The position numbers and the translations under genes are program-made. This document shows positions 1 to 39,442 of a stretch of DNA of 54,511 nucleotides, piece after piece (position 1 is the stretch's first letter; the number at the start of each line of letters is the position of its first letter). Under the pieces are notes generated by a model. The model was given only the letters and a program-made list of their open reading frames with translations, was not told the DNA's origin and did no database searches. Source of the DNA: Planctomycetota bacterium (GTDB lineage: Bacteria; Latescibacterota; UBA2968; UBA8231). The DNA is taken from positions 1 to 54,511 of the forward strand of contig JBLHGI010000003.1 in the NCBI GenBank assembly GCA_047616505.1, in the 5' to 3' direction.

Positions 1-126
1 TGTCCGGGGGGTCCACCACAAGCACCGTGTCCGGGGGATCCACCACAAGCACCGTGTCCGGGGGGTCCACCACAAGCACCGTGTCCGGGGGGTCCACCAC
101 AAGCACCGTGTCCGGGGGGTCCACCA
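1..126. repeat. 27-bp coding tandem repeat, about 4.7 copies visible
   Basis: Unit tgtccggggggtccaccacaagcaccg at 1, 28 (one substitution), 55, 82 and partial at 109; no spacers; encodes VDPPDTVLV on the minus strand. Confidence 0.95.
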
Positions 127-523
127 GACCACCCGTCGGCTGCGTCGCCTTCATCACAATGTGCACGCGCACCATCTGGTCTGGCGCTACGTCCGTCGTC
201 GTCGCTCCGGCATAGGTCAAGTTGCCTAGCTCGTTAAACGCACTCAGGCGCAACAGGCGAGCTGGACCGGCCGATATACCGCGTATCGAACCGCGCGCCA
301 CACCGTCTTCGCCAATATTGAGATTGCCGCGCAGCGAGTCGCCGTCAGCAACGACGAGGTATTCGACCCATGATACCTGTTCGACAACGATCTTGGGTAA
401 CGGCAGCGCAATTTCAAAGCTGCCGGCCTTATTAATCGATTGCGATGGCTTGCTGCGATCGCAGCCCATTAACAGTAGGAAACACATCAGAGGGTAAAGC
501 CCCATACGACATAACAAAGCCAT
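1..523 (-). CDS. Lipoprotein with a beta-sandwich domain and a (VDPPDTVLV)n repeat; C-terminus lies outside the window (not in supplied ORF track)
   Basis: Manual translation from ATG at 523, which overlaps the upstream TGA (TGATG): MALLCRMGLYPLMCFLLLMGCDRSKPSQSINKAGSFEIALPLPKIVVEQVSWVEYLVVADGDSLRGNL...; lipobox LMGC; frame open to position 1. Confidence 0.85.
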   Translation of the reverse strand, partial: MALLCRMGLYPLMCFLLLMGCDRSKPSQSINKAGSFEIALPLPKIVVEQVSWVEYLVVADGDSLRGNLNIGEDGVARGSIRGISAGPARLLRLSAFNELGNLTYAGATTTDVAPDQMVRVHIVMKATQPTGGLVDPPDTVLVVDPPDTVLVVDPPDTVLVVDPPDTVLVVDPPD

Positions 524-1581
524 CACCCCCCCCCCTCTACGCCTTCAAAAACCGCTTCTACCTCGATCGACCCCCGCGGAATACGCAGCGCCTGCATTTC
601 GATAGCCAGTTCAATCGTCTCGTTTTCCGTCAGCGCTATCAGCGCCGAGCCAAACGCCACGATTTGCCCGCCCTCGTCGTAGGCAAAGAGTTCGACAAGG
701 CGATCGCGACCCGGTTTAATCGAGAGCAGTGTCTTCTGCGCCTTCTGGTCGGCCGTGATCAGCAAATCGCCTTGCAACGTATCTAGATCGGCCGCCGCGA
801 TGATATACTGCACGCGGACTACATCCACACCAATAGGCGCGGCGCTAATCTTTAGCACGCCGTCCGTATGTGAGCGCTGCACGAGCAAACGCATCGCGTC
901 CGTAGCGCTCAGCCCCTGGCTATCTGTCACCGTCAAACGGAACACGTACTCGCCCACTTCTCCGGCCACGACCATCGCCTGCGCCGAAGCGGCCCCTCGA
1001 ATGATCAGCGGCGGCCCTTCGATCTGCACCCAAGCGTATTCTAAGCTGGTATCCTCAGCATCTGAGCTACCGCTGCCGTCCAAGAGCACCGCTTCTTGGA
1101 TTTCGGCCTGTAGGTCGCGCCCAGAGCGCGCTATCGGTGCCGTATTCGGCGTGTTATCCGAAGGTTTACCGCCGTTCGGGTCCGTCACCTGCAAGACCAT
1201 CTCGTCGGCAGCGCTCAAGCCTTGGCCATCCGTCACCGTCAGACGAAAGACATAGATGCCCTCTTGCGCGGGCGTTACCTGCGCGCGGCCGCTGCCGGCA
1301 TTCTGTATGCTGATAGATGGACCTTCGACCTGGGCCCAGGAATAATTCAACAAGCTGTTGTCGGCAGCGCCGCTATCCGTGCCATCTAAAATGACGACCT
1401 CGCGCACCTGCGAGCGCAGGTCTTGACCCGCATCGGCACTGGGCGTCTCCGTCAGCGGAGACGAGGTGGGCGGAGATTCACAGGCCCAGAGCGCAAGGAC
1501 TGCCCAAAGCGTAAATCCCATATACAGGGAGTATTTCATAAACCATTCGAGCCACACCAAGTGCAGGGGCTGGGGAAACAC
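523..1581 (-). CDS. Lipoprotein with two PKD/K319L-like Ig domains and a C-terminal beta-sandwich domain
   Basis: Lipobox LWAC; two repeats A.[AS]G.DL...LDG..S...L.Y.W.Q.EGP...G.YVFRLTVTD.QGLSA.D; true start probably the internal MKYSLY. Confidence 0.85.
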   Translation of the reverse strand: MFPQPLHLVWLEWFMKYSLYMGFTLWAVLALWACESPPTSSPLTETPSADAGQDLRSQVREVVILDGTDSGAADNSLLNYSWAQVEGPSISIQNAGSGRAQVTPAQEGIYVFRLTVTDGQGLSAADEMVLQVTDPNGGKPSDNTPNTAPIARSGRDLQAEIQEAVLLDGSGSSDAEDTSLEYAWVQIEGPPLIIRGAASAQAMVVAGEVGEYVFRLTVTDSQGLSATDAMRLLVQRSHTDGVLKISAAPIGVDVVRVQYIIAAADLDTLQGDLLITADQKAQKTLLSIKPGRDRLVELFAYDEGGQIVAFGSALIALTENETIELAIEMQALRIPRGSIEVEAVFEGVEGGG

Positions 1582-1627
1582 CGATGGGGCAGTGTAGAGA
1601 AAACTATTGGGCTGTAAAAGACGCGTT

Positions 1628-2374
1628 TTAAACCGCGCGTCTCATCCTTTTGTTCTTCGGCACAGAATCTTGTTTTTTTAGCGATTTATCTCGCCACTGG
1701 TAGAGTCGGTGCACGGGTAGGGCAATCTGCTTGTGCGAAAAGCCAAGTCTCCAAGTAACGATCTCGCGCCGAAGGGCAAAAAACCACACTCCTACTACCA
1801 ACGCATAGCGACCCCATATGTTCCATTGGGCAAGTATGGCGCTATACCACACCTTGCGTTCGGCAGAAAAATGCGCGCGAAACTCCACCATCAAATCGCC
1901 GCGCATTCGCGTCGGCGGCATGGCGTTGATATGGTCCCAAATAGCGATATAAGACCCCATAAAAAAACTCGTCACATGCGTGGCCCACAGCAAGAGCAAA
2001 ACGCCGACAATCCAGCGGATCTTCCACCAGACGCCCTTCTGTGGCGAAACGGCAAGCAGAGCCGTCGCAGCAATAATATTGAGGTAAATCGCCTCGTAAC
2101 TATGCGCCTGTAGCCGGAGCATGCTCCCATCCAAGCGCTCATAGGCCAATACGAGCGCTCTACCGTGCAGCTCCAATTGTACCGGCAACGACCACGCGCT
2201 AAAGAGCGCATTGAGCGCCGGCTCCAACAAAGCCACATAGAGGGGAGATACCAGCTGCCAAAAGCCAAAGAGCAGACCAGCCATAGCCACAAAACGGGCC
2301 AGAAAGAGTAGGGGGCCGCTCATGGGATTTCCCTCCGCTCTACCACTACGACCTCGCGCACCCAGTACATCCAC
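1628..2374 (-). CDS. Multi-pass membrane protein, exosortase H-associated-like
   Basis: Several TM helices; directly follows the exosortase; likely start MSGPLL (ATG at 2323) overlapping the exosortase stop as ATGA; lacks the catalytic Cys motif. Confidence 0.6.
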   Translation of the reverse strand: MDVLGARGRSGRAEGNPMSGPLLFLARFVAMAGLLFGFWQLVSPLYVALLEPALNALFSAWSLPVQLELHGRALVLAYERLDGSMLRLQAHSYEAIYLNIIAATALLAVSPQKGVWWKIRWIVGVLLLLWATHVTSFFMGSYIAIWDHINAMPPTRMRGDLMVEFRAHFSAERKVWYSAILAQWNIWGRYALVVGVWFFALRREIVTWRLGFSHKQIALPVHRLYQWRDKSLKKQDSVPKNKRMRRAV

Positions 2375-2862
2375 AAGAATAGCACAAAACCGATATTGAC
2401 TAGCACCATGATATAGACGTGAAAGAGCTCTATCTGGGCGGGCACAAAACGCGCGACCAAGCCCATAATAGTCAAACGCAGGGTGCTGTAGACAATAAAA
2501 GCAGGCAGCACGAGCGCCACGCCCTTCGCCTTATCAGCCAACGATGCGGGATAGGCCAGCACAGCAGCCAAACACATGAAAAGCGCGAAGATACCCGTAC
2601 ACTCAAAGGTGACCAAATAGACTATATCGCGCACCGCTAGCTGGCAGACACCCGTCGCGAGCAACGCCTCGCCCAGACGCGCATCGATACCCAGCCCAGT
2701 GAGCAACCAGGCAGCCGCATAAGAGATGGGGTACATGTAGAAGTCGACGAGCGGCATGCGCAAAAGTTCAAATAGTAGCGCTAGCCCCCCTAACCACACG
2801 ACAAAAAGGGCACAGAACTGCAGGCCAGCTCGCTCCTTCCACATCCCCCGTAAAGACTCCAA
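2320..2862 (-). CDS. xrtH: Exosortase/archaeosortase family transpeptidase, most like XrtH
   Basis: Cys-Arg-His triad in the expected order: VTFECTG...AAVLAYPA...STLRL...LFHVY...LWMYW; TTG start with AGAGG upstream; subfamily call is tentative. Confidence 0.8.
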   Translation of the reverse strand: MESLRGMWKERAGLQFCALFVVWLGGLALLFELLRMPLVDFYMYPISYAAAWLLTGLGIDARLGEALLATGVCQLAVRDIVYLVTFECTGIFALFMCLAAVLAYPASLADKAKGVALVLPAFIVYSTLRLTIMGLVARFVPAQIELFHVYIMVLVNIGFVLFLWMYWVREVVVVERREIP

Positions 2863-2905
2863 TATAGTTTCCTCTACACTCTATACCCGATAAAGGCTAC
2901 TCTCC

Positions 2906-3037
2906 TTATACAGGCAACAACCACTGCAGCCCCAGGGGCAGTACCGTACCCAATACGGCGATGAGCAAACCCAATGCACCCAATAGAGCACCGCGACCCA
3001 TCAATAGAAAAAATTCTGCTATACGCGTGCTTAACAT
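2906..3037 (-). CDS. Unannotated 43-aa hydrophobic small protein
   Basis: MLSTRIAEFFLLMGRGALLGALGLLIAVLGTVLPLGLQWLLPV*; AGGGA upstream of the ATG; same strand as, and 43 nt upstream of, the exosortase. Confidence 0.55.
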   Translation of the reverse strand: MLSTRIAEFFLLMGRGALLGALGLLIAVLGTVLPLGLQWLLPV

Positions 3038-3185
3038 GCCGATTTCCCTGTCTATACATAAACCGAAATGCGAGAGCGGCGGCCTCCCTGGCCCTTAAAT
3101 ACTATAGTAGCTCTCTATTCGGTTTATCGGCATCTACAGCACGAGCTTTAGCATTTATCTATAAATCTGGCTTACAGATAAATAC
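3036..3185 (-). promoter_or_regulatory. Structured intergenic leader with two stem-loops, one pairing with the small-ORF start codon
   Basis: ataaaccgaa..gagagc/gctctc..ttcggtttat stem at 3058-3127, extended by atgccgat(3036-3043)/atcggcat(3126-3133); separate 14-bp hairpin at 3151-3185 whose mismatches are G-U pairs on the minus strand. Confidence 0.5.
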
Positions 3186-3248
3186 ACAAAACGACTAAGA
3201 TTATCTTTTGTTGCGTTAGTTAATGAAAAACAAAGAGAAAGGTGATGT

Positions 3249-6200
3249 TTATTTTACCAACATCATGCGCTGTGTTTGCACGCGTTCACCGGCGACCAAG
3301 CGATAGAAATACACGCCACTGGCCAGCGTGGTGCCGCGATCGTCGCGGCTATCCCAACGCAGTCGGTGGCTGCCCGCATCGAGACGGCCTTGGACCAGCG
3401 TGCGCACTTTCTGACCCAGCGCATTAAACACATCCAGCGACGCGAGCGCGTCATTGGGCAAATCAAAGCGGATGAGGGTTTCCGCGTTGAAGGGATTGGG
3501 CATATTCTCGTGCAGAGCAAAGCGCAGCGGTTGCACAGCTAGTAGCTGCGCCCCGTTTAAGCGCGCGCTAATGCGGCCGCCGTTAAAATGCCCTGAAAGC
3601 GCTTTTACCTGCGCTTTGGCATCCGTCGGATAGATGCGGAATAGTTCGCCGTTGCCACTGAGCGGACGCGGGCCGGCAAAGGATACGTGCAGACCGTCCT
3701 CGGCATTGTGGTAGACCATCTCGAAGAGTTCCATCTCCACCGCCATTTCCACCCGGCCCTCAATGCCTTCTAAGACCAGGTCGGCGGCAATGATCTCGCT
3801 GCGATCTTCGAGTTGGACGGCGATAAAATCCGTATGCGATTGCACCGCCAAAAAGCGCTCGCTAACTACGGGTTTTGCGTTGTTGCTCGTTTCGGGCTGC
3901 GGTTGGTTCTGCGAGCTAGACTCCTGCACCGGAAAGCGCGCGATCATGCCCAAACGCCGCTGAATGGCCAACGCGGCATCAAAGGCCGTAATCGAACTAT
4001 AGGGTGCATTCGCATCTAAGTTGGCCACCAGCGAGTCGCGGCCCGTCAATAGGGCATGACCAACGGCATGTGAAAGGATGAGCGCGCCGTCAAAGGCCTG
4101 TAGCACACCGCTGCCGTCGGCATCGCCTAGTACCACGACCTGATGCGTGTCGAGCAGCGCATTGACCGGCCCTGCCATGCTGAGCGGATCGTCGTATTGC
4201 ACGAAGAGCGTGTCGCCGGCCTGGGCTTGCATGACACCATCGTCATTGGCCCCTCCCGCACCAAAAATCGTGGCGAGCTGGCCAAAGAAGATCGTGTCAT
4301 CGACGCTCTGCTCGGTGAGCACCACGCTTTCGCTCTCACCGCTGCGGCTATTCTGCAGCGTAGCGTTAAATACCTCGACGGCGAGCGGATCGATATTGAG
4401 GTCGACGTCTTTGACCTTGACGCGCACGGTATCGCCCGGCTCGGAGATGACCGTCGCTTCCACCGTACCATCGTTGCCCAGCAGCGTCACCGAACCCGAC
4501 GAAGTGTCGTTCCAGTCGGACTCACCGCCATTAAAGGTCAATTGCACCAAGGCCACCTGCGAGGTAATGGCATCGCGCAACTTGTTGACGAAGAAGTTGA
4601 GATTCAGAAAAAGGCCTTTGCTCGTCAACGGCGCCCCCAGGTTGGTGGCCATCACCTTCAGGGTGTCGATGGGCTCGACACTGCCCGCAGAAATGGTATA
4701 ACCCAGAGACCAGGTGCTGGCCAGCGTGCCGCTATTGTCCAGACCGGTAAAGGTCAGCAAGTTGCGATTGAAGGAGATATCCATAACGGATTCGGCCACC
4801 AACATGCCACTAGTCGAATCGATATTGACCGCTAGCGTTAACGGCTGGCCATAAGAAGCCGAGGTCGAGCTAATGGATACTTTCAGATAAGGTGTAACGC
4901 CGAATATGAGATAGGCTTCGCCCGATAGGCTATTAGCACCTTGAGCACCGATGAGCAGGTCGTCCACCCCATCGCCATTGACATCGCCGCCGCTGGACGC
5001 GAGACCGAGATAATCGTTACCAGCAGCACCCAGCACCTCTATGCTTAGAAAATTTGGATTGCCGGAAATTGCAAGATCGATATATGCGGGCAGCGTCTGC
5101 TGACCCCAAACCCCATGGACTGCGCCGGAATACAAGCCATTAGTAGTAGAAGAGAAGGGAGCATCCATTATCAAATCGGCATAGCCATCGCCGTTGTAGT
5201 TGATGGCAGCCACATCCCAGCCCAGATAAGCGTACTCCCCATTGCCATCTATGATGAGGTCGGCAGTGCCGCCAGCTGATAGATCGATAAAATCCGAAAC
5301 GATGGCCGATCCAAAAAATACGTATGTTCGCCCCTCGAATAAGGAGCCGAAGGTCGGCGCTCCGACGATGAGGTCGTCGTAGCCATCGCGATTTACGTCG
5401 CCGCCATCCACGCTATTGGAAAAAAGATCAGCAACAGCATTGCCGCGCACCCTCAGGTCCGCACTCGTCAATAGATCGATATGGGTCGTCGGCGCAGCGC
5501 TACCCAGCACCACGTAGGCTTCGCCCCGATTGTTGCCACCAGTGGCCGCTGAGGCACCGATGATCACGTCATCTATGTCATCGCCGTTCATGTCTAATGT
5601 GGCCAGCGAAGTGCCCGCGCCATCGCCTATAGCTCGTCCAAAGATCTTGACATCCACTGAATCAGTCGCCAGGTCTATAGTGGCCGGCAGACCAGCAGTG
5701 TCACCATAGATGATATAAGTAATACCGGCATTGAGGCGACCGGGCGGCGAGGCATCGGGAGCAGAAACGGCTATATCTATCAAGTTGTCACCGTTAAAGT
5801 CTCCCGTAGCTAAACTCGCACCTAGCAGATCGGCCTCTTCGGCACCACTCAACTCCATATCGGCACTTGTCGAACTAAGATCTATAGAGGCTGGTAGCGT
5901 AGCCTGGCCGAATATTATATAGACCTGTCCGGCGGCGCCGCGACCATAGGGATCAGCTGATCGAGTGCCGATGAGCAAGTCGCCGTATCCATCGTTATTG
6001 ACATCGGCTACTTCCAGCGCGGGATAGCCCAACTCGTCGTTGGCAGTTCGCCCCAGCACCACCATATCGGCCTGAGTTGCCAGGTTCACAGTCGCAGTCG
6101 GGGACGCACTGCCGCGCACTATGTAGATCTTTCCCGCCCTGTAGCGTCCACCTGGTGAGGCGCGGGAAGCACTTATGATCATCTCTGCATATCCATCGCC

Positions 6201-6428
6201 ATCGAGGTCGCCGACTATCACAGCAGCGCCGGTTTCGTCGTTTGCCCCACCTCCCAATAGGCGCACATCGCCATTTCCCGCACCCAGATCAATCGTTGTG
6301 TTGGTTTGGGCATAGCCCCACTCGGCACAGACCAGCACTACTACCCCTACTACCAAGGGCAATAGCATTCCTGTGTCCCGCAGGGCGCGCATCGCTTTAT
6401 TTTTTATTTGATCAATCATTGGATTCAA
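3249..6428 (-). CDS. Secreted FG-GAP (integrin-alpha-like) propeller + cohesin + Ig-like repeat + dockerin + FlgD-Ig/T9SS-like CTD protein
   Basis: Seven GD[LVF][DN]GDG..D[LM]IIGA-type blades; cohesin-like segment (ISFNRNLLTF...GLFLNLNF...FNGG); dockerin LGDADGSGVLQAFDGALIL...ITAFDAALAIQ; NMPNPFN...RMMLVK end; start may be a downstream ATG. Confidence 0.88.
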   Translation of the reverse strand: MNPMIDQIKNKAMRALRDTGMLLPLVVGVVVLVCAEWGYAQTNTTIDLGAGNGDVRLLGGGANDETGAAVIVGDLDGDGYAEMIISASRASPGGRYRAGKIYIVRGSASPTATVNLATQADMVVLGRTANDELGYPALEVADVNNDGYGDLLIGTRSADPYGRGAAGQVYIIFGQATLPASIDLSSTSADMELSGAEEADLLGASLATGDFNGDNLIDIAVSAPDASPPGRLNAGITYIIYGDTAGLPATIDLATDSVDVKIFGRAIGDGAGTSLATLDMNGDDIDDVIIGASAATGGNNRGEAYVVLGSAAPTTHIDLLTSADLRVRGNAVADLFSNSVDGGDVNRDGYDDLIVGAPTFGSLFEGRTYVFFGSAIVSDFIDLSAGGTADLIIDGNGEYAYLGWDVAAINYNGDGYADLIMDAPFSSTTNGLYSGAVHGVWGQQTLPAYIDLAISGNPNFLSIEVLGAAGNDYLGLASSGGDVNGDGVDDLLIGAQGANSLSGEAYLIFGVTPYLKVSISSTSASYGQPLTLAVNIDSTSGMLVAESVMDISFNRNLLTFTGLDNSGTLASTWSLGYTISAGSVEPIDTLKVMATNLGAPLTSKGLFLNLNFFVNKLRDAITSQVALVQLTFNGGESDWNDTSSGSVTLLGNDGTVEATVISEPGDTVRVKVKDVDLNIDPLAVEVFNATLQNSRSGESESVVLTEQSVDDTIFFGQLATIFGAGGANDDGVMQAQAGDTLFVQYDDPLSMAGPVNALLDTHQVVVLGDADGSGVLQAFDGALILSHAVGHALLTGRDSLVANLDANAPYSSITAFDAALAIQRRLGMIARFPVQESSSQNQPQPETSNNAKPVVSERFLAVQSHTDFIAVQLEDRSEIIAADLVLEGIEGRVEMAVEMELFEMVYHNAEDGLHVSFAGPRPLSGNGELFRIYPTDAKAQVKALSGHFNGGRISARLNGAQLLAVQPLRFALHENMPNPFNAETLIRFDLPNDALASLDVFNALGQKVRTLVQGRLDAGSHRLRWDSRDDRGTTLASGVYFYRLVAGERVQTQRMMLVK

Positions 6429-8489: not shown

Positions 8490-8506
8490 AATTATATCCG
8501 CAGCGC

Positions 8507-13849: not shown

Positions 13850-13961
13850 ATATCCTCCGACTCGCTGCATAGTCTCTCGCTACAATATAATATATCGGGA
13901 AGGGTAACTCCAAGGGGCAGTGCACGCGGCTTTCGCACGCGTTTTTTACTCTGATCAAGCG

Positions 13962-13999
13962 GAAGAAGGGGTAGGGGCTCTTGCACCCACCCCTTCTTC
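13962..13999 (-). terminator. Strong intergenic stem-loop after the 1297-aa gene (terminator or mRNA-stabilising hairpin)
   Basis: Minus strand gaagaaggggtgggtgc-aaga-gcccctaccccttcttc, about 17-bp stem, no clear U-tract. Confidence 0.6.
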
Positions 14000-14029
14000 G
14001 TTGTCTTACTTACCGTTGTGGTAGGATCG

Positions 14030-17000
14030 TTAGCGCAGCAGCGTCATCTTGCGCGTCTGCGCAAAATTGCCAGCTTCGATGCGATAGAAGTAGAGACCAC
14101 TCGCCACCGCGTGGCCCAGGTCATTGCGTGCATCCCACTGCACCGTGTACTGACCCACTGTCTGCATACCGTCGACTAACGTGCGCACCTTTTGGCCCAG
14201 CATGTCGTAGACTTCTAGCTTGACCTGCGCCGCTTCTGGCAACGCATAGCGCAACGAAGTCTCCGGGTTAAACGGGTTGGGCCAGTTGGCCGAGAGGTTG
14301 AAGGCCTTGGGCTGCTGGACGATGTGCAGTGCCTCAACCGGAGTAGCACCGATCTGACCGCCGTTGAGCGAAGCCACCTCGATGCGCGGCGACTCGCCGC
14401 CGGCGCCCAACACTTCCAGTTCTACTCTGAGGATGGCACCTTCACCTGCAGCATGCGACTGAGCACCTGCCATAGCAATCAACAGCTCGCCTTCAGCCGC
14501 GTTGGTGGCGACGAGATAGTCGGCCGTATTCGCCGTGTTCTTGACGCCGAGCACGCGGTAGGCCTGCGGGTCATAAGAAATCCTGAACTGGCCCGAAAGC
14601 ACGTCGCGAGTCTCGTCGAGCACGATCGGTAAACTCATGCGCGCGCCCTGCTGCTGCGGCTGACCAAAAGAAATCAGGCGCTCGTCGACGATTTTCTTAT
14701 AGGGGTGCGGGTTGGGAACACCAATCTGCACCGGAAAGGTGTTGATGATCCCGACTACGTATTGCAGCACCTTGGTGGCGTCGAAGGCGGTGATATTGCT
14801 GCTGTCGAAGGGATTGTCACCCGAGCTGGCATCGACGTTGGCCACTGCCTCTTGATACGAGTTAAAGGTGATAAACGTAATCGAACGCTGTAGGATCTGC
14901 GAAGCATCCAACGCGCCGAGTTTGTTGTTATCCGAAGTATCACCCCAGAGCACGCCCTGCACCGTAGCATCAATATCCTGCGGACCGCCGGTAATGTCGG
15001 ATACATCGGCATAACGGACAGTGAGATTATCGTGAGCACTGACCTGAATCGTGCCGTCGCCAGAAGTGGCACTACCGCTACCCGTCGTGGCCGGCGGCGT
15101 GGCGCGGAAGATACCGGTGTTGATGCCGGTCTCCGTCAGCGTAATCGTCTCGACGTCGCCGTTGGTATTATTGGTAACTGTAGCCGTAGCCGTCTCGGCA
15201 GCCGTGGAGCTGACGTTAAGATCGGAATCCGTGACCTGAATACGCAGACCGTCGCCCGACTGGATATCCGAGCTGGCCACAATCACACCCGTGTTGCCGC
15301 CGAGCACGTCGACCGCTGGTGTAGACGTGCGCGTTATGGCGCTGCCGCCCGACGTTACCAAATCGACGTAGTCGACCACGATAGAATCACCGGCTTTGAC
15401 GTCCAGCGGAGCACCGCTTGTCGTCGCCCCAGAGGTAAAGGCCGTAGCAATCGTGCCCGTAAAGTTATTTCCAGTGCCCGTGGCATTCAGCGTCAATGCT
15501 ATGCTCTCGCCACGCGTCGAGCGCACGGTTACCTGCACTGTGCCGCTATTGCCCAAGTCAGCATCCTGCACTGTAACCGTGACGCTTTCACCCGCGTTGA
15601 TCGAAGCAGACGCAGTGGATACCGTGCCGTCACCGCCGCCGACAACACTGATATTGCTCGAAGTTATCGTCGAACTGCCGCCCGAAGCGTTGAGATTGTC
15701 GACGTAGTCGATGACGACTACGTCGTTTACCGCCACGCCGAGCGTGCCATTATTATTGTTGCCCGAGCTACCCGCACCGGAGAAAGCCGTGTTGATCGAG
15801 CCGGTAAACGTGCCGCTGCCCGCCGGGTCTTCCGTCAGCGTGACATCTTCCGTCTCGCCGCTGTTCGCGTTGCGCACCGTAACAATGAGTATGCCGGAAC
15901 CGTTGACACGCGTGTCCTCAGCAATGTCCAAATCCGTCAGCGAAATGCTCAGCACATCGGCGACGGAGATCGAAGCGGGCACGCTGTTGAAGGCGCCGTT
16001 GGTGGCGGTGATGGAGAGAACGTTATTTTCCGGCGTGCCACTACCACCGATCAAGTCGTCGTAGTCGACGATGATCTGGTCGCCAGGCTGCACGTTGAGC
16101 GTGCCATCGCCCTGGCTACCCGGTGCTCCGGAACTCGGTACCACAGCCACGAAGATTCCGCTATTAACCGGCGTCTCTATCAGTGTAATCGTTTCCTTTT
16201 CGACGATGCCGCCAGCACGTTTGACAATCACTTCGACGATAATCGAACCAAAGCCCGTCAAGTCAGCATCCGTAACGACGACCGTCACATCACCGCCGGC
16301 GTTCACGGTCGGCGGAGCAGTGACCACGGTGCCAGTAACACCTGTATCAATTGTAATATTCGAAGAGGTTATCGTAGAAGCACCACCCGAAGAATTCAGC
16401 GGGTCGCTGTATTCAATGACGACTACATCGTTCGGCTTGACACCCAACGTGCCATTGCCCGAAGCCGGCGAAGTGCCGTCATCATAAATGGTGGCAACCG
16501 AGACCGTAAAAGTACCGCTGCCCGCCGGGTCTTCCGTCAACGTGACGACTTCCGTTTCGCTAGTCGTCGTATTGCGCGCCGTAGCACTAACGGAGGCGGC
16601 ACCGCTGATACGCGTGCCAGCGCCGAGATCTGAATCCGTCAGCGAAACTACAATCGACTGCGCAACCTCAACTACGCTCGGCACCGTGAAAGAACCGCTC
16701 GTCGCCGTGATCGAAGATACACCCGCCACCGGAGCGCCCGTGCTACCCACTGGATCATCGTAGCTCACAATAATCTGATCACCGTCTTGCACATTGAGCG
16801 TGCCATTGCCCGCACTGCCCGCTGCGGACGAAGTTGATGCGATCACTGTGCCCACACCCGAACCGTTAAAAACTACCGCGTAGGTTTCCGTATCTATAAT
16901 CGTAATGCCAGAAGCGTTGATGCGACGCACGCTAACGGTGACCTGACCGCTCTGATTGGCCTGGTCGGCGTCCGTCACCGTAATCGTCACATTGCTGCCT

Positions 17001-17923
17001 GCGCTGACCGAAGAAGGCGACGTACTTACCGTACCATCGACACCGGCGACGACATCAATCAAATCCGTCACTGTCGTGCCCGCGTCACCGCTAGCATCAA
17101 AACCGTCGGTGTATTCGCCTTCTAAATCATCAGTCGGTTCAACTTCAAACTTGCCACCTGCAATACCGGTCGTGCCATAAGTCGTGCTGAACCCGCCCGT
17201 AAAGACCGCCGTGTTTAGGCCCGTCTCCGTCAGCATGACCGTCTGCGTTTCTTTGGTTACTGCGCCGCTGTCCTTGCTGCGAAGCGTAACGTTGACCGTC
17301 TCTGCCGCACCGGATGAGGTGTTCAGATCGGCATCCGTCAGCGTCACCAACACACTCTCGCTGGGGCGCACTGGATTCGGCGTCAGCGTCAACGCACCCG
17401 TCACACCCTCGAGCTTAACCGAACCACTCGTCGCCGTAACAGCCGCTTCATTTAAATCCGCCAACGTCAGCGTCAGCGCCGAAGAAGTCGGCGAATTCGC
17501 GGCGGCAGCTTGAAAATTTATAGTGAATAAGGAGGAAGTCCCCGAAGTCGGCAGTGCCGAGCTACTCGAAGCCGCCGCCGCCGAGATGCGCAGCTCCTTG
17601 GTCGTGCCCGAAATGGTGACGATGTTTTGCTCAAGGATCCAGCCGTCAGTGTCAAAACCCAATTGCTGAATGGCAGAAGCTCCCGTGCCAAAGACTTCTA
17701 TAACGCTGCTATCGTATTGCAGCGTTATATCGACACCGACGATACCCGCACCGGCATCGGTCACGGAAATGGGTACCATGCCCGTCTGGCCTTGTGCAAT
17801 TCCAAAATCGGTCGGCGCAGAAATGGTAGCTGCATCTGCCTGGGCGATACTGAGCATCCAGATCATCAGTGCGGCGGCCCATAGGGGGAGAGCCAGCGTG
17901 CGCTTGGTGGCCGCGTGCTTCAT
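14030..17923 (-). CDS. Large secreted cohesin + 7 Ig-like repeats + dockerin + cohesin + FlgD-Ig/T9SS-like CTD protein
   Basis: AGGAG before ATG 17923 (MKHAATKR signal peptide); cohesin (ITLQYDSSVI); seven ~115-aa Ser/Thr/Gly-rich repeats V.[VL]TD.D...G[DN]GTL.V...D...V.Y.D; dockerin WGDTSDNNKLGALDASQIL...ITAFDATKVLQYVVG; second cohesin (ISYDPQAY); NWPNPFN...KMTLLR. Confidence 0.9.
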   Translation of the reverse strand: MKHAATKRTLALPLWAAALMIWMLSIAQADAATISAPTDFGIAQGQTGMVPISVTDAGAGIVGVDITLQYDSSVIEVFGTGASAIQQLGFDTDGWILEQNIVTISGTTKELRISAAAASSSSALPTSGTSSLFTINFQAAAANSPTSSALTLTLADLNEAAVTATSGSVKLEGVTGALTLTPNPVRPSESVLVTLTDADLNTSSGAAETVNVTLRSKDSGAVTKETQTVMLTETGLNTAVFTGGFSTTYGTTGIAGGKFEVEPTDDLEGEYTDGFDASGDAGTTVTDLIDVVAGVDGTVSTSPSSVSAGSNVTITVTDADQANQSGQVTVSVRRINASGITIIDTETYAVVFNGSGVGTVIASTSSAAGSAGNGTLNVQDGDQIIVSYDDPVGSTGAPVAGVSSITATSGSFTVPSVVEVAQSIVVSLTDSDLGAGTRISGAASVSATARNTTTSETEVVTLTEDPAGSGTFTVSVATIYDDGTSPASGNGTLGVKPNDVVVIEYSDPLNSSGGASTITSSNITIDTGVTGTVVTAPPTVNAGGDVTVVVTDADLTGFGSIIVEVIVKRAGGIVEKETITLIETPVNSGIFVAVVPSSGAPGSQGDGTLNVQPGDQIIVDYDDLIGGSGTPENNVLSITATNGAFNSVPASISVADVLSISLTDLDIAEDTRVNGSGILIVTVRNANSGETEDVTLTEDPAGSGTFTGSINTAFSGAGSSGNNNNGTLGVAVNDVVVIDYVDNLNASGGSSTITSSNISVVGGGDGTVSTASASINAGESVTVTVQDADLGNSGTVQVTVRSTRGESIALTLNATGTGNNFTGTIATAFTSGATTSGAPLDVKAGDSIVVDYVDLVTSGGSAITRTSTPAVDVLGGNTGVIVASSDIQSGDGLRIQVTDSDLNVSSTAAETATATVTNNTNGDVETITLTETGINTGIFRATPPATTGSGSATSGDGTIQVSAHDNLTVRYADVSDITGGPQDIDATVQGVLWGDTSDNNKLGALDASQILQRSITFITFNSYQEAVANVDASSGDNPFDSSNITAFDATKVLQYVVGIINTFPVQIGVPNPHPYKKIVDERLISFGQPQQQGARMSLPIVLDETRDVLSGQFRISYDPQAYRVLGVKNTANTADYLVATNAAEGELLIAMAGAQSHAAGEGAILRVELEVLGAGGESPRIEVASLNGGQIGATPVEALHIVQQPKAFNLSANWPNPFNPETSLRYALPEAAQVKLEVYDMLGQKVRTLVDGMQTVGQYTVQWDARNDLGHAVASGLYFYRIEAGNFAQTRKMTLLR

Positions 17924-17980
17924 CGGAGATCTCCTGAAAAAGTTATACACTATGGTGAATATTTATCTACTAATATTCTG

Positions 17981-18008
17981 AATATACTCTTTCACAAATG
18001 AAAAGCAA
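17981..18008 (-). promoter_or_regulatory. Candidate sigma70 promoter for the cohesin-dockerin cluster
   Basis: TTGCTT-16 nt-TATATT on the minus strand within a very AT-rich divergent intergenic region. Confidence 0.35.
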
Positions 18009-18147
18009 GAAAAAGATAAGTTGTTTTGCCAATTGATAAAAAGATATTTTTGTGTTTTTTTTTCATCAAATTTATCTATAATTATATAAGAAATAGATAA
18101 ATTATTTGCTTTTTTACCTCTTTTTCTTAGATTGGGGCTAATCTATT

Positions 18148-18176
18148 TTGACTTTCTGCTAAAATATGAATATGGT
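18148..18176 (+). promoter_or_regulatory. Candidate sigma70 promoter for the response regulator pair
   Basis: TTGACT-17 nt-TATGGT. Confidence 0.55.
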
Positions 18177-18249
18177 AAGTCCCAGTTAATTCAGATTTTA
18201 GCTTCCTACACCCCGCGTAGTGATCCTCCTCGTGCGCACAGAAAGACTT

Positions 18250-19161
18250 ATGGCAGAATCTCCTGACAACGCTGATTCTACGCCTGGGCAAGACCCAGTT
18301 CGTTCTATCTTTGTGCTCGCCGTCGATGACGACGAGCTTTATCTCCAATACTGCCAACGCACCCTCGCACGCTCCCACTTACACATGGATACCGCCCTAG
18401 GGGGACTGGCAGCGATAGAGAAAGTTGGCGCGCAGAGCTACGATATCATCTTGATGGATATCACAATGCCCGAGATGAATGGGCTCGAATGCCTGCGTAA
18501 ACTGCACGAAAACGGCTGCAAATCCGAAGTCATTATCGTTACGGGCAAAAGCGATTTACAAACTGCTGTAGAAGCGATGAAACTCGGGGCTGCCGACTTT
18601 GTAACTAAGCCCTTTGACGCCGAGGCGCTAGTCAGCAAAATAGAAGAACTGGCTATCCGCTCGAGTAGACCCCTTACAGCAGAGGAAGAGTTGGAGCGCC
18701 GGCGCCGCGAAGATCGCCGCCGCGAAAACGACCGCAGACTAGACGATCGCCGTGCTGATCCAACTGGAGACCGACGCCGAGGGAGCCGGAGAAATGACGA
18801 TCGCCGAGAATCCGGAGATCGCCGACTGCGTCACGGCGACCCTGTCATCGCTTATATCCGACAAAACGCGACTGAGATCAACGGGCGACAGGATGTAGCC
18901 ACTGCTATGAGTCTGAATGTCGACCAAGTATCGGCGCGCGTACAGGCAGCTACAGGCCAGTCTTTCCGCCATTGGCTCAACCACTGTCGCCTACAGACAG
19001 CCACTCGACTGTTAGAAGACACCGATATTGAAATCGCCCGCGTCGCTGAGAAGACGGGCTTTGCTACCGTACAGCACTTTAGTCGCGTCTTTAGCAACCT
19101 CAATGGGCTCTCGCCGCGCAAATACCGCCAACAAAGCCGTCAAGTCAGCGTAGATGCATAA
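18250..19161 (+). CDS. Response regulator, REC + Arg-rich linker + AraC-type HTH
   Basis: VDDD, ILMDITMP (phospho-Asp), IVTG, TKPF; C-terminal IARVAEKTGFATVQHFSRVF...G.SPRKYR; start ATG 18250 or GTG 18220. Confidence 0.9.
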   Translation: MAESPDNADSTPGQDPVRSIFVLAVDDDELYLQYCQRTLARSHLHMDTALGGLAAIEKVGAQSYDIILMDITMPEMNGLECLRKLHENGCKSEVIIVTGKSDLQTAVEAMKLGAADFVTKPFDAEALVSKIEELAIRSSRPLTAEEELERRRREDRRRENDRRLDDRRADPTGDRRRGSRRNDDRRESGDRRLRHGDPVIAYIRQNATEINGRQDVATAMSLNVDQVSARVQAATGQSFRHWLNHCRLQTATRLLEDTDIEIARVAEKTGFATVQHFSRVFSNLNGLSPRKYRQQSRQVSVDA

Positions 19162-19242
19162 TTCCGCCGCTTTTTTGCCTATTTTGGCAGAGAGCCGTTA
19201 TTTTACTAGATCACATTGACACTTGAGATGTAGGCGATTGAT

Positions 19243-19998
19243 ATGTCCATAGAATACACAAATACCCCATCTGATAGCTGTTCTATATTGGTGATAGACG
19301 ATGATGACCTCTTCCTGCAGTACTGTCAGCGCGTGCTCAATGATTCCGCAGCACAAGTAGACATAGCGGTCAACGGACTCGAAGGTCTAGAGAAATCGCA
19401 GGCCAATAACTACGATGTCATTCTACTCGACATAGCTATGCCCCACATGGACGGCCTCGAATGTCTGGATAAATTGCAGAAAACCGGCTGTCGGGCCGTA
19501 GTAATTATGGTGACGGGCGGAGGCGATGTGGCTACAGCGGTAGAAGCAATGAAGCGCGGCGCGGCAGACTATATACAAAAACCCTTTGGCCCCGAGAATC
19601 TGCGCACGCGTATAAATGATGCGCTGAACAAAAAGGAACAACGACAGGAAGAATCCGAACAATTCTCGCGCGACCCCGTCGTCGCCTACATACAAAAGAA
19701 CGCCGCTCAGGTAAATGCACGGCAAGACGTAGCCACCGCCCTAGGCCTGAGCTTAGACCAAGTCTCGGCGCGCGTACAGGCAGCTACGGGCCAGTCCTTT
19801 CGCCAATTGTTGCACACCTGTCGACTGAAACGAGCCATGCGCTTGCTAGAAACGACCGAAATGGAAATCGCCCGGATTGCCGAAGAGACGGGCTTTGCCA
19901 CCGTACAGCACTTCAGTCGCGTCTTCAGTAACCTCAACGGACTCTCGCCACGCAAATATCGCCAGCAAAGCCGCCTCGATCCCGTTTCGCTGCACTGA
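19243..19998 (+). CDS. Response regulator, REC + AraC-type HTH (paralogue of upstream gene)
   Basis: IDDDD, LLDIAMP, MVTG, QKPF; AraC C-terminus nearly identical to the neighbour. Confidence 0.9.
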   Translation: MSIEYTNTPSDSCSILVIDDDDLFLQYCQRVLNDSAAQVDIAVNGLEGLEKSQANNYDVILLDIAMPHMDGLECLDKLQKTGCRAVVIMVTGGGDVATAVEAMKRGAADYIQKPFGPENLRTRINDALNKKEQRQEESEQFSRDPVVAYIQKNAAQVNARQDVATALGLSLDQVSARVQAATGQSFRQLLHTCRLKRAMRLLETTEMEIARIAEETGFATVQHFSRVFSNLNGLSPRKYRQQSRLDPVSLH

Positions 19999-20009
19999 GC
20001 CAAGTCTTT

Positions 20010-30250: not shown

Positions 30251-31501
30251 TTGCTGCCTCTTCTATTTTTATTGCTGACCACCTCGGTTCTCCTTGCCGA
30301 AGACTACCCCCCTGGCACGTTGCAACTCACCCCCCAACTAGACTTAGCGCTGCGCCCCGTAGCAGTCGAGGGGTTGCCCGGTCGCACGCTCAACCTACCG
30401 CCCGGTTTTAAGGTCAAGCTGTTCTCTAAGGAGGTGGATCACGGTCGCTTTATGGCCTTTGACGACAGCGGCGTACTGCACGTAGCCAATATGAATACCC
30501 GCGACTACGGCTATTGGACCTACAGCGACAAGCGCAACGGCAGCGTGCGCGCCTTTCCCGATAAAGACGGCGACGGCCACGCCGATCGCTCCTATGTCGC
30601 CGCCGATCGTTTTCTACAACCGCACAGCGTCGCCTTCTACAAGGGCCAGCTCTACGTCGCCGACCACGATATGATCTATCGCCTCTCCGATAAGGACGGC
30701 GACGGCTACTACGAAGAGCGCAGCGAATTTATCAAAGTGCCCGGCATCATGGGCCGCTCCTCCGAGCACGTGACGCATTCAATCGTATTCGACAAAGAAA
30801 ACGACAAACTCTACCTGCACATCGGCTCCAGTTGCGACGTCTGTCGCGAGGACGACTCCGAGCGCGCCACCATCCTAGAATTCAACGCCGACGGCACGGG
30901 ACGCCGCATTTACGCTTCGGGTCTGCGCAACGCCCTGGGCCTCGACCTACACCCCATCACCGGTGAACTCTGGGCCAGCGGCAACGGCCACGACCGCGAG
31001 GGCATAAAATTACCCCCGGAGTGGATCAACATCGTCCGCGACGGATCGTTCCACGGCTGGCCTTTCGCCTATGCCTACCGCGTCTGGGTCGATTTCACCG
31101 ATGAAGAGTACAAACGCATAGTAGGGCCTCGCACCGCTGCAGATAGCGCTTTAGTCGAACGCGTCGAACGTCCCGTCGCTTTAGTCGGTGCCCATCTCGC
31201 GCCGATGGGTCTGCATTTTTACACGCACGATCAATTCCCATCCCAGTACAAAAATGCCGCCTTTGTCGCCTTCCACAACGGCGTCGGCCACCCGGACCAG
31301 CTCGGTTATAAAGTCTCCGTACTCTTTAGCAAACCAGACGGTAGCGACGCTCGCATCGCCGATTTCCTCACGGGTTTTCACACGGAGAACAAGGGCTATT
31401 GGGCTCTACCTGTGGGCGTGATCAGCGATGGACACTTGTACATCAGCAGCGACCGCATTACGCCGGCTATTTTTCGCGTTGAGTACGATCCTGACAAATA
31501 G
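30251..31501 (+). CDS. Glucose/L-sorbosone dehydrogenase family (PQQ-type beta-propeller), exported
   Basis: LNLPPGFKV.LF, GSSCDVCRE, YASGLRN..G, AHLAPMGL.FY...QFP..YKN.AFVAFH. Confidence 0.88.
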   Translation: MLPLLFLLLTTSVLLAEDYPPGTLQLTPQLDLALRPVAVEGLPGRTLNLPPGFKVKLFSKEVDHGRFMAFDDSGVLHVANMNTRDYGYWTYSDKRNGSVRAFPDKDGDGHADRSYVAADRFLQPHSVAFYKGQLYVADHDMIYRLSDKDGDGYYEERSEFIKVPGIMGRSSEHVTHSIVFDKENDKLYLHIGSSCDVCREDDSERATILEFNADGTGRRIYASGLRNALGLDLHPITGELWASGNGHDREGIKLPPEWINIVRDGSFHGWPFAYAYRVWVDFTDEEYKRIVGPRTAADSALVERVERPVALVGAHLAPMGLHFYTHDQFPSQYKNAAFVAFHNGVGHPDQLGYKVSVLFSKPDGSDARIADFLTGFHTENKGYWALPVGVISDGHLYISSDRITPAIFRVEYDPDK

Positions 31502-31887: not shown

Positions 31888-32017
31888 GGTGGGATGGGGG
31901 ATGGCCCGTGAGCGGATTTAGATGGCCTTTTTCGCAGGACAGCGAAAAAGGCCATATACCGCGCAGCCCGACGGGATGTTGGGCGAGCACGAGCGAAGGG
32001 CCATCCCCCATCCCACC
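31888..32017. repeat. 130-bp multi-hairpin palindromic element (MITE/REP-like or cis-regulatory RNA)
   Basis: Perfect 20-bp terminal inverted repeat ggtgggatgggggatggccc; perfect 14-bp inner hairpin 31922-31955; third hairpin gcccgac/gttgggc. Confidence 0.7.
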
Positions 32018-32045
32018 GTCCACATCAGAACAGAAACGAAAAAAC

Positions 32046-37525: not shown

Positions 37526-37566
37526 GTTGAACCCTTTCGTTATTCTTAATCATTAGTGCAACCCTC

Positions 37567-38793: not shown

Positions 38794-38850
38794 AAACCGA
38801 CCCCAGGAGGCCGGCTCATTTTAGCACATCGATAGAGGTTTATAGGAACA

Positions 38851-39351: not shown

Positions 39352-39442
39352 CTCTCATTTTCCCGCCCGCCGTTAAAACGAGCACCACTATATAATAGTG
39401 TTAGGGAAAAGCTGCCTCAAGCCCGAAAAAAATCCAGCGCCT

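Follow-up and report, generated by a model that had tools for sequence, protein, structure and literature searches.

Adaptor scaffoldins carry both a cohesin and a dockerin. In Clostridium perfringens and Archaeoglobus fulgidus, cohesin-dockerin modules reside on enzymes or on archaeal proteins. Among surface sorting systems, those of the XrtH/IPTL-CTERM type have cargos whose IPTL motif is IPTLxxWG. An IPTL-CTERM domain is carried by the S-layer protein of Methylomirabilis, as outlined in PMC8671808. An inferred cellulosome-like system from the Cloacimonadota lineage ‘Ca. Stygibacter’ includes, as outlined in PMC8542988, a non-catalytic cohesin protein with a T9SS C-terminal domain (CTD) for surface attachment. 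This single giant scaffoldin bears tandem cohesins and CBMs, and the matching account places dockerins on a chitinase, an amylase and peptidases (PMC8542988).

The locus described here is a variant of the non-cellulosomal cohesin-dockerin systems. It occupies one end of contig JBLHGI010000003.1 (assembly GCA_047616505.1), the 54,511-nucleotide stretch analysed and called the window below. The assembly is 84% complete and contains 82,593 open reading frames (ORFs). The lineage is uncultured and marine, and the depositors label it either Latescibacterota or Gemmatimonadota, which presumably puts it in the FCB group, as is the case for Cloacimonadota. The initial annotation described nine co-oriented genes and a divergent regulator pair. 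Both are present in the window: ORF calls place nine co-oriented ORFs on the minus strand, and two divergent response-regulator/AraC genes lie on the plus strand on the upstream side of P1. Because the window starts at the contig end, which falls inside the last gene of the cluster, the locus is incomplete. Its features are as follows.

19243-19998, plus strand: second response regulator with an AraC-type HTH
18220-19161, plus strand: response regulator with an AraC-type HTH, divergent from P1
14030-17950, minus strand: P1, 1306 aa; signal peptide, cohesin (17414-17803), about seven Ig-like repeats, divergent dockerin (14720-14953), cohesin-like domain (14393-14653), T9SS type-A CTD (14033-14287)
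8507-13870, minus strand: P2, 1787 aa; signal peptide, cohesin (13397-13780), PKD, about 12 FN3-like repeats, canonical dockerin (9263-9403), beta domain, T9SS CTD (8510-8785)
6429-8489, minus strand: P3, 686 aa, the minimal member; signal peptide, cohesin (8103-8408), two Ig-like domains, divergent dockerin (7083-7301), beta domain, T9SS CTD (6432-6686)
3249-6428, minus strand: P4, 1059 aa; signal peptide, FG-GAP propeller head, cohesin (4485-4883), Ig-like domain, divergent dockerin (3918-4136), beta domain, T9SS CTD (3252-3506)
2906-3037, minus strand: small single-pass membrane ORF, 43 aa, upstream of the exosortase
2320-2862, minus strand: short exosortase, 180 aa, XrtX/XrtH-like, uncurated
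1628-2374, minus strand: polytopic membrane partner of the exosortase
523-1581, minus strand: lipoprotein, 352 aa, two PKD-type domains and a C-terminal Ig-like domain
2-526, minus strand: second lipoprotein, cut by the contig end within an 8-aa tandem repeat (VDPPDTVL)

The four large proteins share one plan: a signal peptide, an optional head, a cohesin, a rod of Ig or FN3 domains, a dockerin, a small cohesin-like beta domain and a T9SS type-A CTD. Their rods are very unequal in length, with about 1, 2, 7 and 13 Ig/FN3 domains. Several elements of this plan had been recognized at the outset and hold up under profile searches. The FG-GAP propeller corresponds to seven FG-GAP stretches in P4 (Pfam, 163 bits), and the FN3 rod to repeats in P2 that match Pur_ac_phosph_N in nine stretches and fn3 in six (Pfam). 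As had also been proposed, Pfam and NCBIfam searches detect no catalytic family in P1 to P4. A match of P1 to S_layer_anammox reaches 68.5 bits, far under the cut-off of 1400. Contigs from marine metatranscriptomes, which may stem from DNA despite their RNA-library origin, cover parts of P1 to P4 with at least 95% identity, and one such contig, subject to the same reading, covers the exosortase/partner junction.

A cohesin had been claimed for each of the four proteins. This assignment is clear for P2 (46 bits) and P1 (34.7 bits) against the Pfam Cohesin cut-off (PF00963, 24.1 bits), and borderline for P3 and P4, which score 24.4 and 24.6 bits in one search vs 20.3 and 18.9 in another. For P3, the N-terminal domain has a cohesin fold: in the AlphaFold model (mean pLDDT 79.8), it matches 1g1k_A with a TM score of 0.81, an rmsd of 2.5 and 26% identity. 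The domain that follows the dockerin also passes Pfam Cohesin in P1 (24.5 bits in one search, 24.1 in another) and in the paralogous protein C74 (34.4 bits). In all, the locus holds five of the seven Pfam cohesin matches of the genome.

The parallel claim of four dockerins is upheld by Pfam for P2 (Dockerin_1, PF00404, 29.2 bits; cut-off 22.9), and the segments in P1, P3 and P4 yield no Dockerin_1 match even at an E-value of 10. A profile built from these three segments and their orthologues nonetheless matches solved dockerins. Its best hit is the ScaB dockerin of Acetivibrio cellulolyticus (4uyq_B, E 6.8e-7), which aligns over its full length, including a C-terminal FPV motif. In the alignment, the Asp/Asn columns of the calcium loops are invariant and the second calcium loop is lengthened. 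Among the 82,593 ORFs, this dockerin type occurs in P1, P3 and P4 only, a restriction that is valid for the assembled part of the genome given its 84% completeness. Judging from these sequence comparisons, each of P1 to P4 is predicted to have a cohesin, a dockerin and a further cohesin-like domain.

The C-terminal domain originally labelled FlgD-Ig is indeed matched by FlgD_ig in all four proteins. However, it is a T9SS type-A sorting domain, an identity that the initial annotation overlooked. At the extreme C-terminus, TIGR04183 (cut-off 23 bits) scores 36.5 bits in P1, 31.0 in P2, 32.4 in P3 and 32.9 in P4, and the proteins terminate in CTD beta-strands (...KMTLLR, ...KLMLLR, ...KMTLLK and ...RMMLVK, respectively). 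The CTD part of the AlphaFold model aligns to PorU (6za2). The N-termini are hydrophobic and are followed by Ala-X-Ala-like sites, read by eye as Sec signal peptides. Genome-wide, 82 TIGR04183 matches are present (78 above cut-off), along with PorU (652.9 bits; cut-off 420) and SprA (628.8 bits summed; cut-off 200). The best PorV-like match in this 84% complete genome reaches 55.1 bits vs a cut-off of 250. Given CTDs of the T9SS type-A kind, together with genes for PorU, SprA and some 80 cargos of this sort in the genome, we conclude that P1 to P4 are most likely T9SS cargo rather than exosortase substrates. The combination of motif, transmembrane helix and basic tail is absent from their C-termini.

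The exosortase itself is confirmed as such by TIGR04178 (35.1 bits vs a cut-off of 23). Subfamily thresholds are not reached, either for XrtX (NF046081, 40.2 bits vs 170) or for XrtH (TIGR04177, 29 bits vs 86). Cys88, Arg129 and His148, which we take to be the catalytic residues, are invariant in seven aligned sequences. The partner gene probably starts with the ATG at 2323, so that its start codon and the stop codon of the exosortase overlap as ATGA. Although this protein matches no family in Pfam or NCBIfam, it resembles the XrtH-associated family PF28117 in its features (0.91) and structure (TM 0.66-0.84), and all exosortase paralogues and orthologues are paired with it wherever the contig extends far enough. 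A hydrophobic ORF homologous to the 43-aa ORF occupies the equivalent gap in six of seven related loci examined, with mutually identical copies in L014 and L015.

Three exosortase genes are present in the genome, each adjoined by a partner-like membrane ORF; a BLAST search with the partner from the window picks up just the C92 one, and the C218 ORF was assigned by position. The exosortases on these two complete loci are each adjoined by one protein ending in IPFG[GS]EW, a transmembrane helix and RRN. A genome-wide scan for such tripartite tails finds these two proteins only, and neither tail is matched by IPTL_CTERM (TIGR04174) even at an E-value of 10. Exosortase-adjacent cargos of relatives end in IPFGGEK (G021) or IPFQSKW (L019, L020 and L021), which gives a consensus of IPF[GQ][GS][EK][WK] followed by a transmembrane helix and a basic tail. 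This cargo has a homologue in L014, located after the two lipoproteins. By analogy with relatives, the cargo gene that belongs to the exosortase in the window probably sits past the contig end.

This module is like XrtH/IPTL-CTERM systems in having a short exosortase with a polytopic membrane protein akin to XrtH_assoc, and one small secreted cargo whose C-terminus bears an I-P-x-x-x-x-W-like motif, then a transmembrane helix and a basic tail. It differs in the low XrtH and XrtX scores, in the failure of the IPTL_CTERM model to recognize IPFGxEW tails and in a partner that lacks a Pfam or NCBIfam match.

Two lipoproteins had been proposed, and lipoboxes can be read directly from the sequences of both and of their orthologues. 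Orthologues of the 352-aa protein in L007, L010, L012 and L014 are 65-68% identical. The full-length orthologue of the truncated protein (L014, 417 aa) extends into a TolB-like PD40 propeller (propeller_TolB, 225 bits, under the cut-off of 343). The regulator gene adjacent to P1 is kept upstream of P1 in G003 and G020 and not in G021; the second regulator has a 69% identical orthologue in G003.

The linkage of the exosortase genes to the cohesin-dockerin genes was checked in relatives and holds: wherever the contig of a related assembly runs on, the genes keep the order P1-P2-P3-P4-exosortase-partner. P1 to P4 are followed by the exosortase and its partner in G003, G020 and G021, and P2-P3-P4 by the exosortase in L012 to L018; G005 has P1 to P4 on a contig that stops inside P4. 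Four genes with distinct N-terminal cohesins share one order across several genera, and no CAZyme gene lies within the conserved cluster in the related loci compared. Single proteins with a Coh-Ig-Doc-X-CTD build occur in four further genomes (G009, G017, G022 and G024) that have no exosortase match. In addition, G021 encodes a protein of the P1-P4 build elsewhere in its genome, so not every genome has a closed cohesin-dockerin set.

The statement in the initial annotation that no described system has this combination is overstated, given that adaptor scaffoldins also combine both module types. A T9SS-CTD-anchored cohesin scaffold has likewise been inferred in Cloacimonadota, where the cohesin protein is non-catalytic, as it is here (PMC8542988). 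The locus is nevertheless unlike ‘Ca. Stygibacter’ in that every member carries both modules, enzymes play no part and the genes are linked to an exosortase module. Its resemblance to ScaB (PDB 4uyp/4uyq) lies in the presence of cohesin and dockerin on one non-catalytic polypeptide. Unlike ScaB-type scaffoldins, these proteins belong to a diderm host, would be anchored by T9SS CTDs rather than by SLH domains or sortase, and have one distal cohesin each rather than an array; the lengthened calcium loop and the lack of dockerin-bearing enzymes in the cluster are further differences. Like the C. perfringens GH84C cohesin (PDB 2w1n) and the A. fulgidus pair, the modules are used outside cellulose degradation, but here they are on T9SS cargo. 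In fold comparisons of the X-CTD part of the model, the 2w1n structure (cohesin plus FN3) also ranks second (E 9.6e-6), with a high rmsd.

We favor, with a probability of roughly 60%, the explanation that two distinct surface sorting systems co-travel: one exports P1 to P4, which would be tied together by cohesin-dockerin binding, and the other is the short XrtH-like exosortase with its own cargo. By extension from T9SS in Bacteroidota, P1 to P4 would be exported by Sec and then SprA, after which PorU would remove the CTD and the new C-terminus would be attached to the outer-membrane surface. The dockerin and cohesin-like pair would then end near the membrane, with the N-terminal cohesin or head held at graded heights. 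Calcium-dependent mutual binding among the cohesins and dockerins of the set could yield a heteromeric adhesive or S-layer-like coat, and the three locus-exclusive dockerins and the concentration of cohesin matches in the locus point to such self-assembly. The exosortase, its membrane partner and the tiny membrane protein would form a separate module that processes one dedicated IPF-tail cargo of about 270 aa, encoded after the partner or the two lipoproteins in relatives, and would not sort P1 to P4.

The original proposal was instead that the exosortase/lipoprotein module cleaves and anchors the four proteins, which self-polymerize head to tail. Tight and conserved linkage of the exosortase and partner to P1-P4 and the presence of both module types on each protein speak for it. 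However, we consider this model very improbable given the T9SS sorting domains at the protein ends, where no terminal transmembrane helix with a basic tail is found, the PorU and SprA of the genome, the IPF-tail cargos dedicated to this exosortase clade and the same-build proteins of genomes that have no exosortase match. A cellulosome-like scaffold, in which enzymes with dockerins, encoded elsewhere in the genome, plug into the cohesins of the locus, is also improbable, if less severely so. It has the Cloacimonadota scaffoldin as a precedent, and cellulosome-affiliated enzymes have been attributed to Latescibacteria (PMC7081726, citing Farag 2017). Moreover, seven further Dockerin_1 matches lie outside the locus (three above cut-off), two of them in proteins lacking a Pfam CTD match, namely a 2622-aa Big_1/invasin-like protein and a 303-aa CBM96 protein. 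Yet cellulosomes have catalytic subunits with dockerins, and here P1 to P4 are enzyme-free and neither a glycoside hydrolase nor a peptidase domain turns up in the seven other dockerin-bearing proteins scanned, the sole enzyme-like match among them being an FGE-sulfatase-type domain. This model also leaves the dockerins of P1, P3 and P4 without a role and does not fit a conserved cluster that is devoid of CAZyme genes.

A more serious competitor, though still an unlikely one, is that P1 to P4 are independent T9SS adhesins in which the dockerin and cohesin-like domain form an intramolecular or homodimeric base, hetero-assembly does not occur and the exosortase is a co-regulated neighbor. Doc-X-CTD recurs as a three-domain cassette after heads of many kinds, same-build proteins occur singly in genomes that lack the four-gene cluster, and the linker of about 20 residues between dockerin and X domain would permit fold-back. 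However, in the models the dockerin does not pack confidently against the X domain. Both folds model the dockerin poorly (pLDDT about 35-78) and so point to neither an intermolecular nor an intramolecular mode. This alternative also leaves unexplained why four genes with distinct N-terminal cohesins keep their order across several genera.

Co-travel of two sorting systems, the reading we prefer, can be taken further. We speculate, and regard it as doubtful in this strong form, that P1 to P4 constitute a closed, enzyme-free, calcium-dependent network whose graded rods create a multi-tier lattice or fibrillar coat, and that this coat depends, for its assembly or attachment, on a base protein sorted by an undescribed XrtH-like exosortase that reads IPFGxEW-CTERM. 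If this is true, then two unrelated sorting systems would build one surface structure.

The initial annotation proposed nine co-oriented genes coupled to a regulator pair, and this layout is borne out: the nine genes run head to tail on the minus strand at 2-17950, and two response-regulator/AraC genes diverge from them. The assembly (G000, GCA_047616505.1) comprises 459 contigs and is 84% complete. The window is the first 54.5 kb of its contig C3 (JBLHGI010000003.1), and window position 1 is the contig end. The features are as follows:

18220-19998, divergent from P1: two response-regulator/AraC genes
14030-17950, minus strand: large protein P1, 1306 aa
8507-13870, minus strand: large protein P2, 1787 aa
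6429-8489, minus strand: large protein P3, 686 aa
3249-6428, minus strand: large protein P4, 1059 aa
2906-3037, minus strand: small hydrophobic ORF, 43 aa
2320-2862, minus strand: exosortase, 180 aa
1628-2374, minus strand: polytopic membrane protein (exosortase partner)
523-1581, minus strand: first lipoprotein
2-526, minus strand: second lipoprotein, truncated where the contig stops within a 24-nt tandem repeat

Intergenic gaps are short across the nine-gene run. The exosortase stop overlaps the likely partner start (ATGA at 2320-2323, with the Atlas record of the partner beginning at the same methionine), and the first lipoprotein stop overlaps the second lipoprotein start. A scan of 1-19000 gave 14 promoters (10.6 +/- 3.0 by chance) and 27 terminators (19.2 +/- 6.1 by chance), numbers close to random expectation, with no usable boundary and nothing usable in the gap between P4 and the small ORF.

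P1 through P4 (4/4) share one build, namely a cohesin, a rod, a dockerin, a cohesin-like "X" domain, and a C-terminal domain (CTD). As originally claimed, they are enzyme-free by Pfam and NCBIfam, neither of which matches a catalytic family in any of the four. The rod that follows the cohesin consists of one Ig-like domain in P4, two in P3, and about seven in P1, while in P2 it is formed by a PKD domain and about twelve FN3-like domains. P4 additionally carries an N-terminal FG-GAP propeller of 7 repeats. The assignment of a cohesin to each protein is clear for P2 (46 bits) and P1 (34.7 bits; Pfam cut-off 24.1) and borderline by Pfam for P3 and P4, whose scores straddle the same cut-off: 24.4 and 24.6 bits when the genome was searched, 20.3 and 18.9 bits when the whole proteins were scanned. 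For P3, an AlphaFold model built from 26 homologues (mean pLDDT 79.8) predicts a cohesin fold: the N-terminal domain of the model can be superposed on cohesins of solved structure (1g1k_A: TM 0.81, rmsd 2.5, 26% identity).

Of the dockerins proposed for each protein, Pfam recovers the canonical one in P2 (29.2 bits) and gives no match in P1, P3, and P4 even at E 10. The divergent segments of these three proteins can be tied to solved dockerins through a profile, called A3, that joins them with 13 orthologous segments. A search with A3 returned 13 sequences at E up to 10, and the best matches among solved dockerins were the 75-aa chains 4uyq_B and 4uyp_B (E about 7e-7 over their full length), named by their depositors "Cellulosomal scaffoldin adaptor protein B." Four further matches bear the depositor name dockerin, and three short chains from cellulosomal enzymes are presumably dockerin chains as well. 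The Asp/Asn positions in both calcium loops are invariant across A3, and the second of these loops is unusually long.

Behind the dockerin and a proline-rich linker lies the X domain, which is about 100 aa long and of beta type. This domain passes the Pfam Cohesin model in P1 (24.5 bits) and in a paralogous protein on contig C74 (34.4 bits), and falls below it in P3 and P4. It is predicted with confidence to fold in a Doc-X-CTD model, and the modeled X-CTD pair is only loosely like the cohesin-FN3 pair 2w1n. Weak fold leads exist for P1 and P3: the P1 repeats match an anammox S-layer glycoprotein model at 68.5 bits, far under the cut-off of 1400, and the P3 model finds its top Foldseek matches in Ig-domain strings of the Nitrosopumilus S-layer.

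The CTD, annotated at first as FlgD-Ig, occupies the final 85 residues of each large protein. All four tails pass TIGR04183, the curated model of the type-A sorting domain used in type IX secretion (T9SS), with 31-36.5 bits (cut-off 23). The model has 82 matches in the assembly, of which 78 are over the cut-off and six lie on contig C3. The assembly also encodes the sortase PorU (652.9 bits; cut-off 420) and the translocon SprA (628.8 bits summed; cut-off 200), and its PorV-like matches are weak (55 bits vs a cut-off of 250). A terminal transmembrane helix and a basic tail are absent from P1-P4. Given these tails, the presence of PorU and SprA, and the lack of a terminal helix or basic end, P1-P4 are predicted to be T9SS cargo. 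The suggestion that the large proteins are anchored through the exosortase/lipoprotein module was wrong, since their tails are of the T9SS type. In Bacteroidota, PorU cleaves the CTD and the cargo becomes attached to a surface glycolipid; by analogy, P1-P4 would be processed and attached in the same manner. Two more T9SS type-A cargo genes lie in the window at 23630-25669 and 31908-34376. One encodes a DUF362 domain joined to a CTD, and the other a glucose/sorbosone-dehydrogenase-like propeller joined to a CTD, beside a CTD-less paralogue at 30251-31501.

The exosortase passes the superfamily signature TIGR04178 (35.1 bits vs 23) and no subfamily model, with scores of 40.2 vs 170 for XrtX and 29 vs 86 for XrtH. 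Across seven homologues, its Cys88, Arg129, and His148 do not vary. The Pfam and NCBIfam libraries used contain no family that matches the partner. Language-model features (0.91, 213/256) and predicted structure (TM 0.66-0.84) both liken it to the "exosortase H-associated membrane protein" family. The assembly holds three exosortase genes, each adjoining a partner-like membrane ORF. The two copies outside the window lie in these stretches:

C92:1776-4172 (locus L035): exosortase copy
C218:1989-5475 (locus L036): exosortase copy

BLAST with the window partner detects only the C92 partner (29% identity); the C218 partner, a 171-aa ORF, was assigned by position. Each of these two exosortases has one adjacent protein that ends in IPFGSEW or IPFGGEW, a hydrophobic helix, and RRN. 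Of these cargos, one has 274 aa; the second, of 813 aa, is an M4-type metallopeptidase that also carries a choice-of-anchor D domain. No third IPFG[GS]EW-type tail was found in any other ORF of the assembly. In the relative G021, which is complete, the partner is followed by the gene for a 262-aa protein ending in IPFGGEK, a helix, and RRRT, and in three paralogous loci the tail reads IPFQSKW. The curated IPTL-CTERM model does not match the IPFG[GS]EW tails, and an NCBIfam scan of the cargo and partner proteins returned no sorting-domain or partner family. Searching the ESM Atlas with the C92 cargo gave only weak BNR_assoc_N-like neighbours (TM about 0.5, under the bar for naming a family), a predicted likeness that we treat as a lead only. 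We read the exosortase module as a probable one-enzyme, one-cargo system of the XrtH kind, which would use an uncurated signal and act separately from the sorting of P1-P4.

Several features accompany these cargos. The M4 cargo is thermolysin-like, and an OmpA-like lipoprotein precedes the exosortase copy on C92. Two giant proteins (C14:13910-21775 and C71:1-9081), whose Dockerin_1 matches stay below the cut-off of 22.9 (20.3 and 20.0 bits), also contain the beta-sandwich domain of the small exosortase cargos. One giant has 2622 aa, Big_1/invasin domains, and a C-terminal dockerin; the other has 3027 aa, 18 FG-GAP repeats, and an FGE-sulfatase domain.

The cargo gene of the window exosortase itself probably sits just past the start of the window. 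L014 is the one related locus whose contig runs past the second lipoprotein. There this lipoprotein combines an Ig domain and a short repeat with a PD40 propeller of TolB-like type and has no sorting tail. The gene after it, truncated where that contig stops, is homologous to the C92 and G021 cargos. The best PD40 match in our assembly, on contig C210, was considered as the missing end of the second lipoprotein and rejected because it belongs to a distinct protein that has a signal peptide itself. The in-frame tandem repeat of this lipoprotein (window 1-130) varies by relative: it is VDPPDTVL here, and the units in L012, L013, L015, L017, and L018 include PVEE, DGTDPT, PGDDGT, and a TG-rich one of 12 aa. 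Six independent assemblies are interrupted precisely at this repeat, which has the look of a linker that evolves rapidly and thwarts assembly from short reads.

The exosortase stays linked to the four-gene set in relatives, a linkage on which the initial annotation depended. Exosortase orthologues with 55-73% identity are preceded by P4, P3, and P2 in six related loci (L012, L013 in genome G003, L015 in G020, L016 in G021, L017, and L018). The L014 contig begins within the P4 tail and shares identical or near-identical proteins with G020, of which it is not independent. P1 is also present wherever 20 kb was examined (G003, G020, and G021), and G005 carries P1-P4 on a contig that ends inside P4. 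The small hydrophobic ORF is kept in the same gap in 6/7 related loci examined. The two lipoproteins are present in all these relatives except G021, which is also missing the regulator pair found in G003 and G020. Record titles for L012-L018 label one family as either Gemmatimonadota/Gemmatimonadaceae or Candidatus Latescibacterota, an inconsistent phylum label.

P2-P4 are missing from eight further exosortase loci (L019-L026), which comprise paralogues and one archaeal locus. Conversely, proteins with a head-Coh-Ig-Ig-Doc-X-CTD build occur singly in G009, G017, G022, and G024, where there is no exosortase match, and thus this architecture can do without an exosortase. The C-terminal cassette of about 420 aa stands behind varied heads in public data, including FG-GAP, NHL, and PD40. 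Outside the conserved cluster, the window stretches 36572-41610 and 48668-50158 contain sugar-nucleotide genes (an NAD-dependent epimerase/dehydratase with best Pfam match GDP_Man_Dehyd, a GlcNAc 2-epimerase-like protein, a GHMP kinase, and a nucleotidyl transferase) and a GH20 hexosaminidase, which could be linked to surface glycan metabolism.

Self-assembly of P1-P4 through their cohesins and dockerins is plausible. The indirect arguments for mutual binding are that 5/7 cohesin matches in the assembly lie in the locus, that the A3-type dockerin occurs only in P1, P3, and P4 within this 84% complete assembly, and that 0/7 other dockerin-bearing proteins scanned have a hydrolase domain. The single-copy relatives, with one cohesin and one dockerin each, suggest that self-association may be possible. 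Against mutual binding, or neutral on it, we count the poor modeling of the dockerin in both folds, including its low confidence in the Doc-X-CTD fold (which points neither to nor away from intramolecular docking), an extra protein of the same build elsewhere in G021, and the incomplete assembly. A complex prediction for the P3 cohesin (residues 25-168) and the P3 dockerin (residues 392-470), made for one pair with no controls, gave a score of 0.06 (mark 0.32) and is neutral on binding.

Sequence words of 500-9500 recur in six metatranscriptome runs of marine or seawater origin, drawn from three studies. Comparison of four of these runs (two studies) with 1-20000 gave 80 contigs, 67 of them at 99% identity or more. 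The contigs fall on stretches of P1-P4 and on the 1-667 bin; one crosses the P2/P3 junction (8321-8629) and another, of 177 nt, covers 2353-2529 at the exosortase/partner junction. There is no cover at 668-2001, 2669-3335, and 18010-18676, for which the comparison is uninformative. This shows only that near-identical sequence exists in marine RNA libraries, as the contigs may be DNA and cannot define transcript units.

Taken as a whole, the original observation was largely right. To our knowledge, nearly all known cohesin-dockerin pairs hold together enzyme complexes of Gram-positive bacteria that degrade cellulose. Non-cellulosomal pairs do exist, and adaptor scaffoldins hold both a cohesin and a dockerin in one protein; the best match to the dockerins of the locus is such an adaptor scaffoldin chain (PDB 4uyq). 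One report on Cloacimonadota infers a cohesin scaffold anchored by a T9SS CTD together with dockerin enzymes (PMC8542988). That scaffold serves enzymes, whereas the P1-P4 set is enzyme-free. In Methylomirabilis, an S-layer protein has been described that bears an IPTL-CTERM tail (PMC8671808). Searches of the accessible literature, with supplements and subscription papers excluded, found no publication on an enzyme-free T9SS cohesin-dockerin set or on the IPF exosortase tail, and a literature search found none joining Latescibacteria with cohesin and dockerin.

The significance of both systems would follow from sequences of uncultured organisms. The exosortase clade, its partner, and the IPF[GQ][GS][EK][WK] tail fit no curated family model tested, and a one-enzyme, one-cargo system of this kind would be a setting for studying exosortase function. 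If our reading of P1-P4 is true, the locus would supply new orthogonal cohesin-dockerin pairs for protein engineering. It would also represent a conserved, enzyme-free cohesin-dockerin set that is exported by a T9SS to a diderm outer membrane, wherein each member is both plug and socket and the pair would be put to structural or adhesive use.
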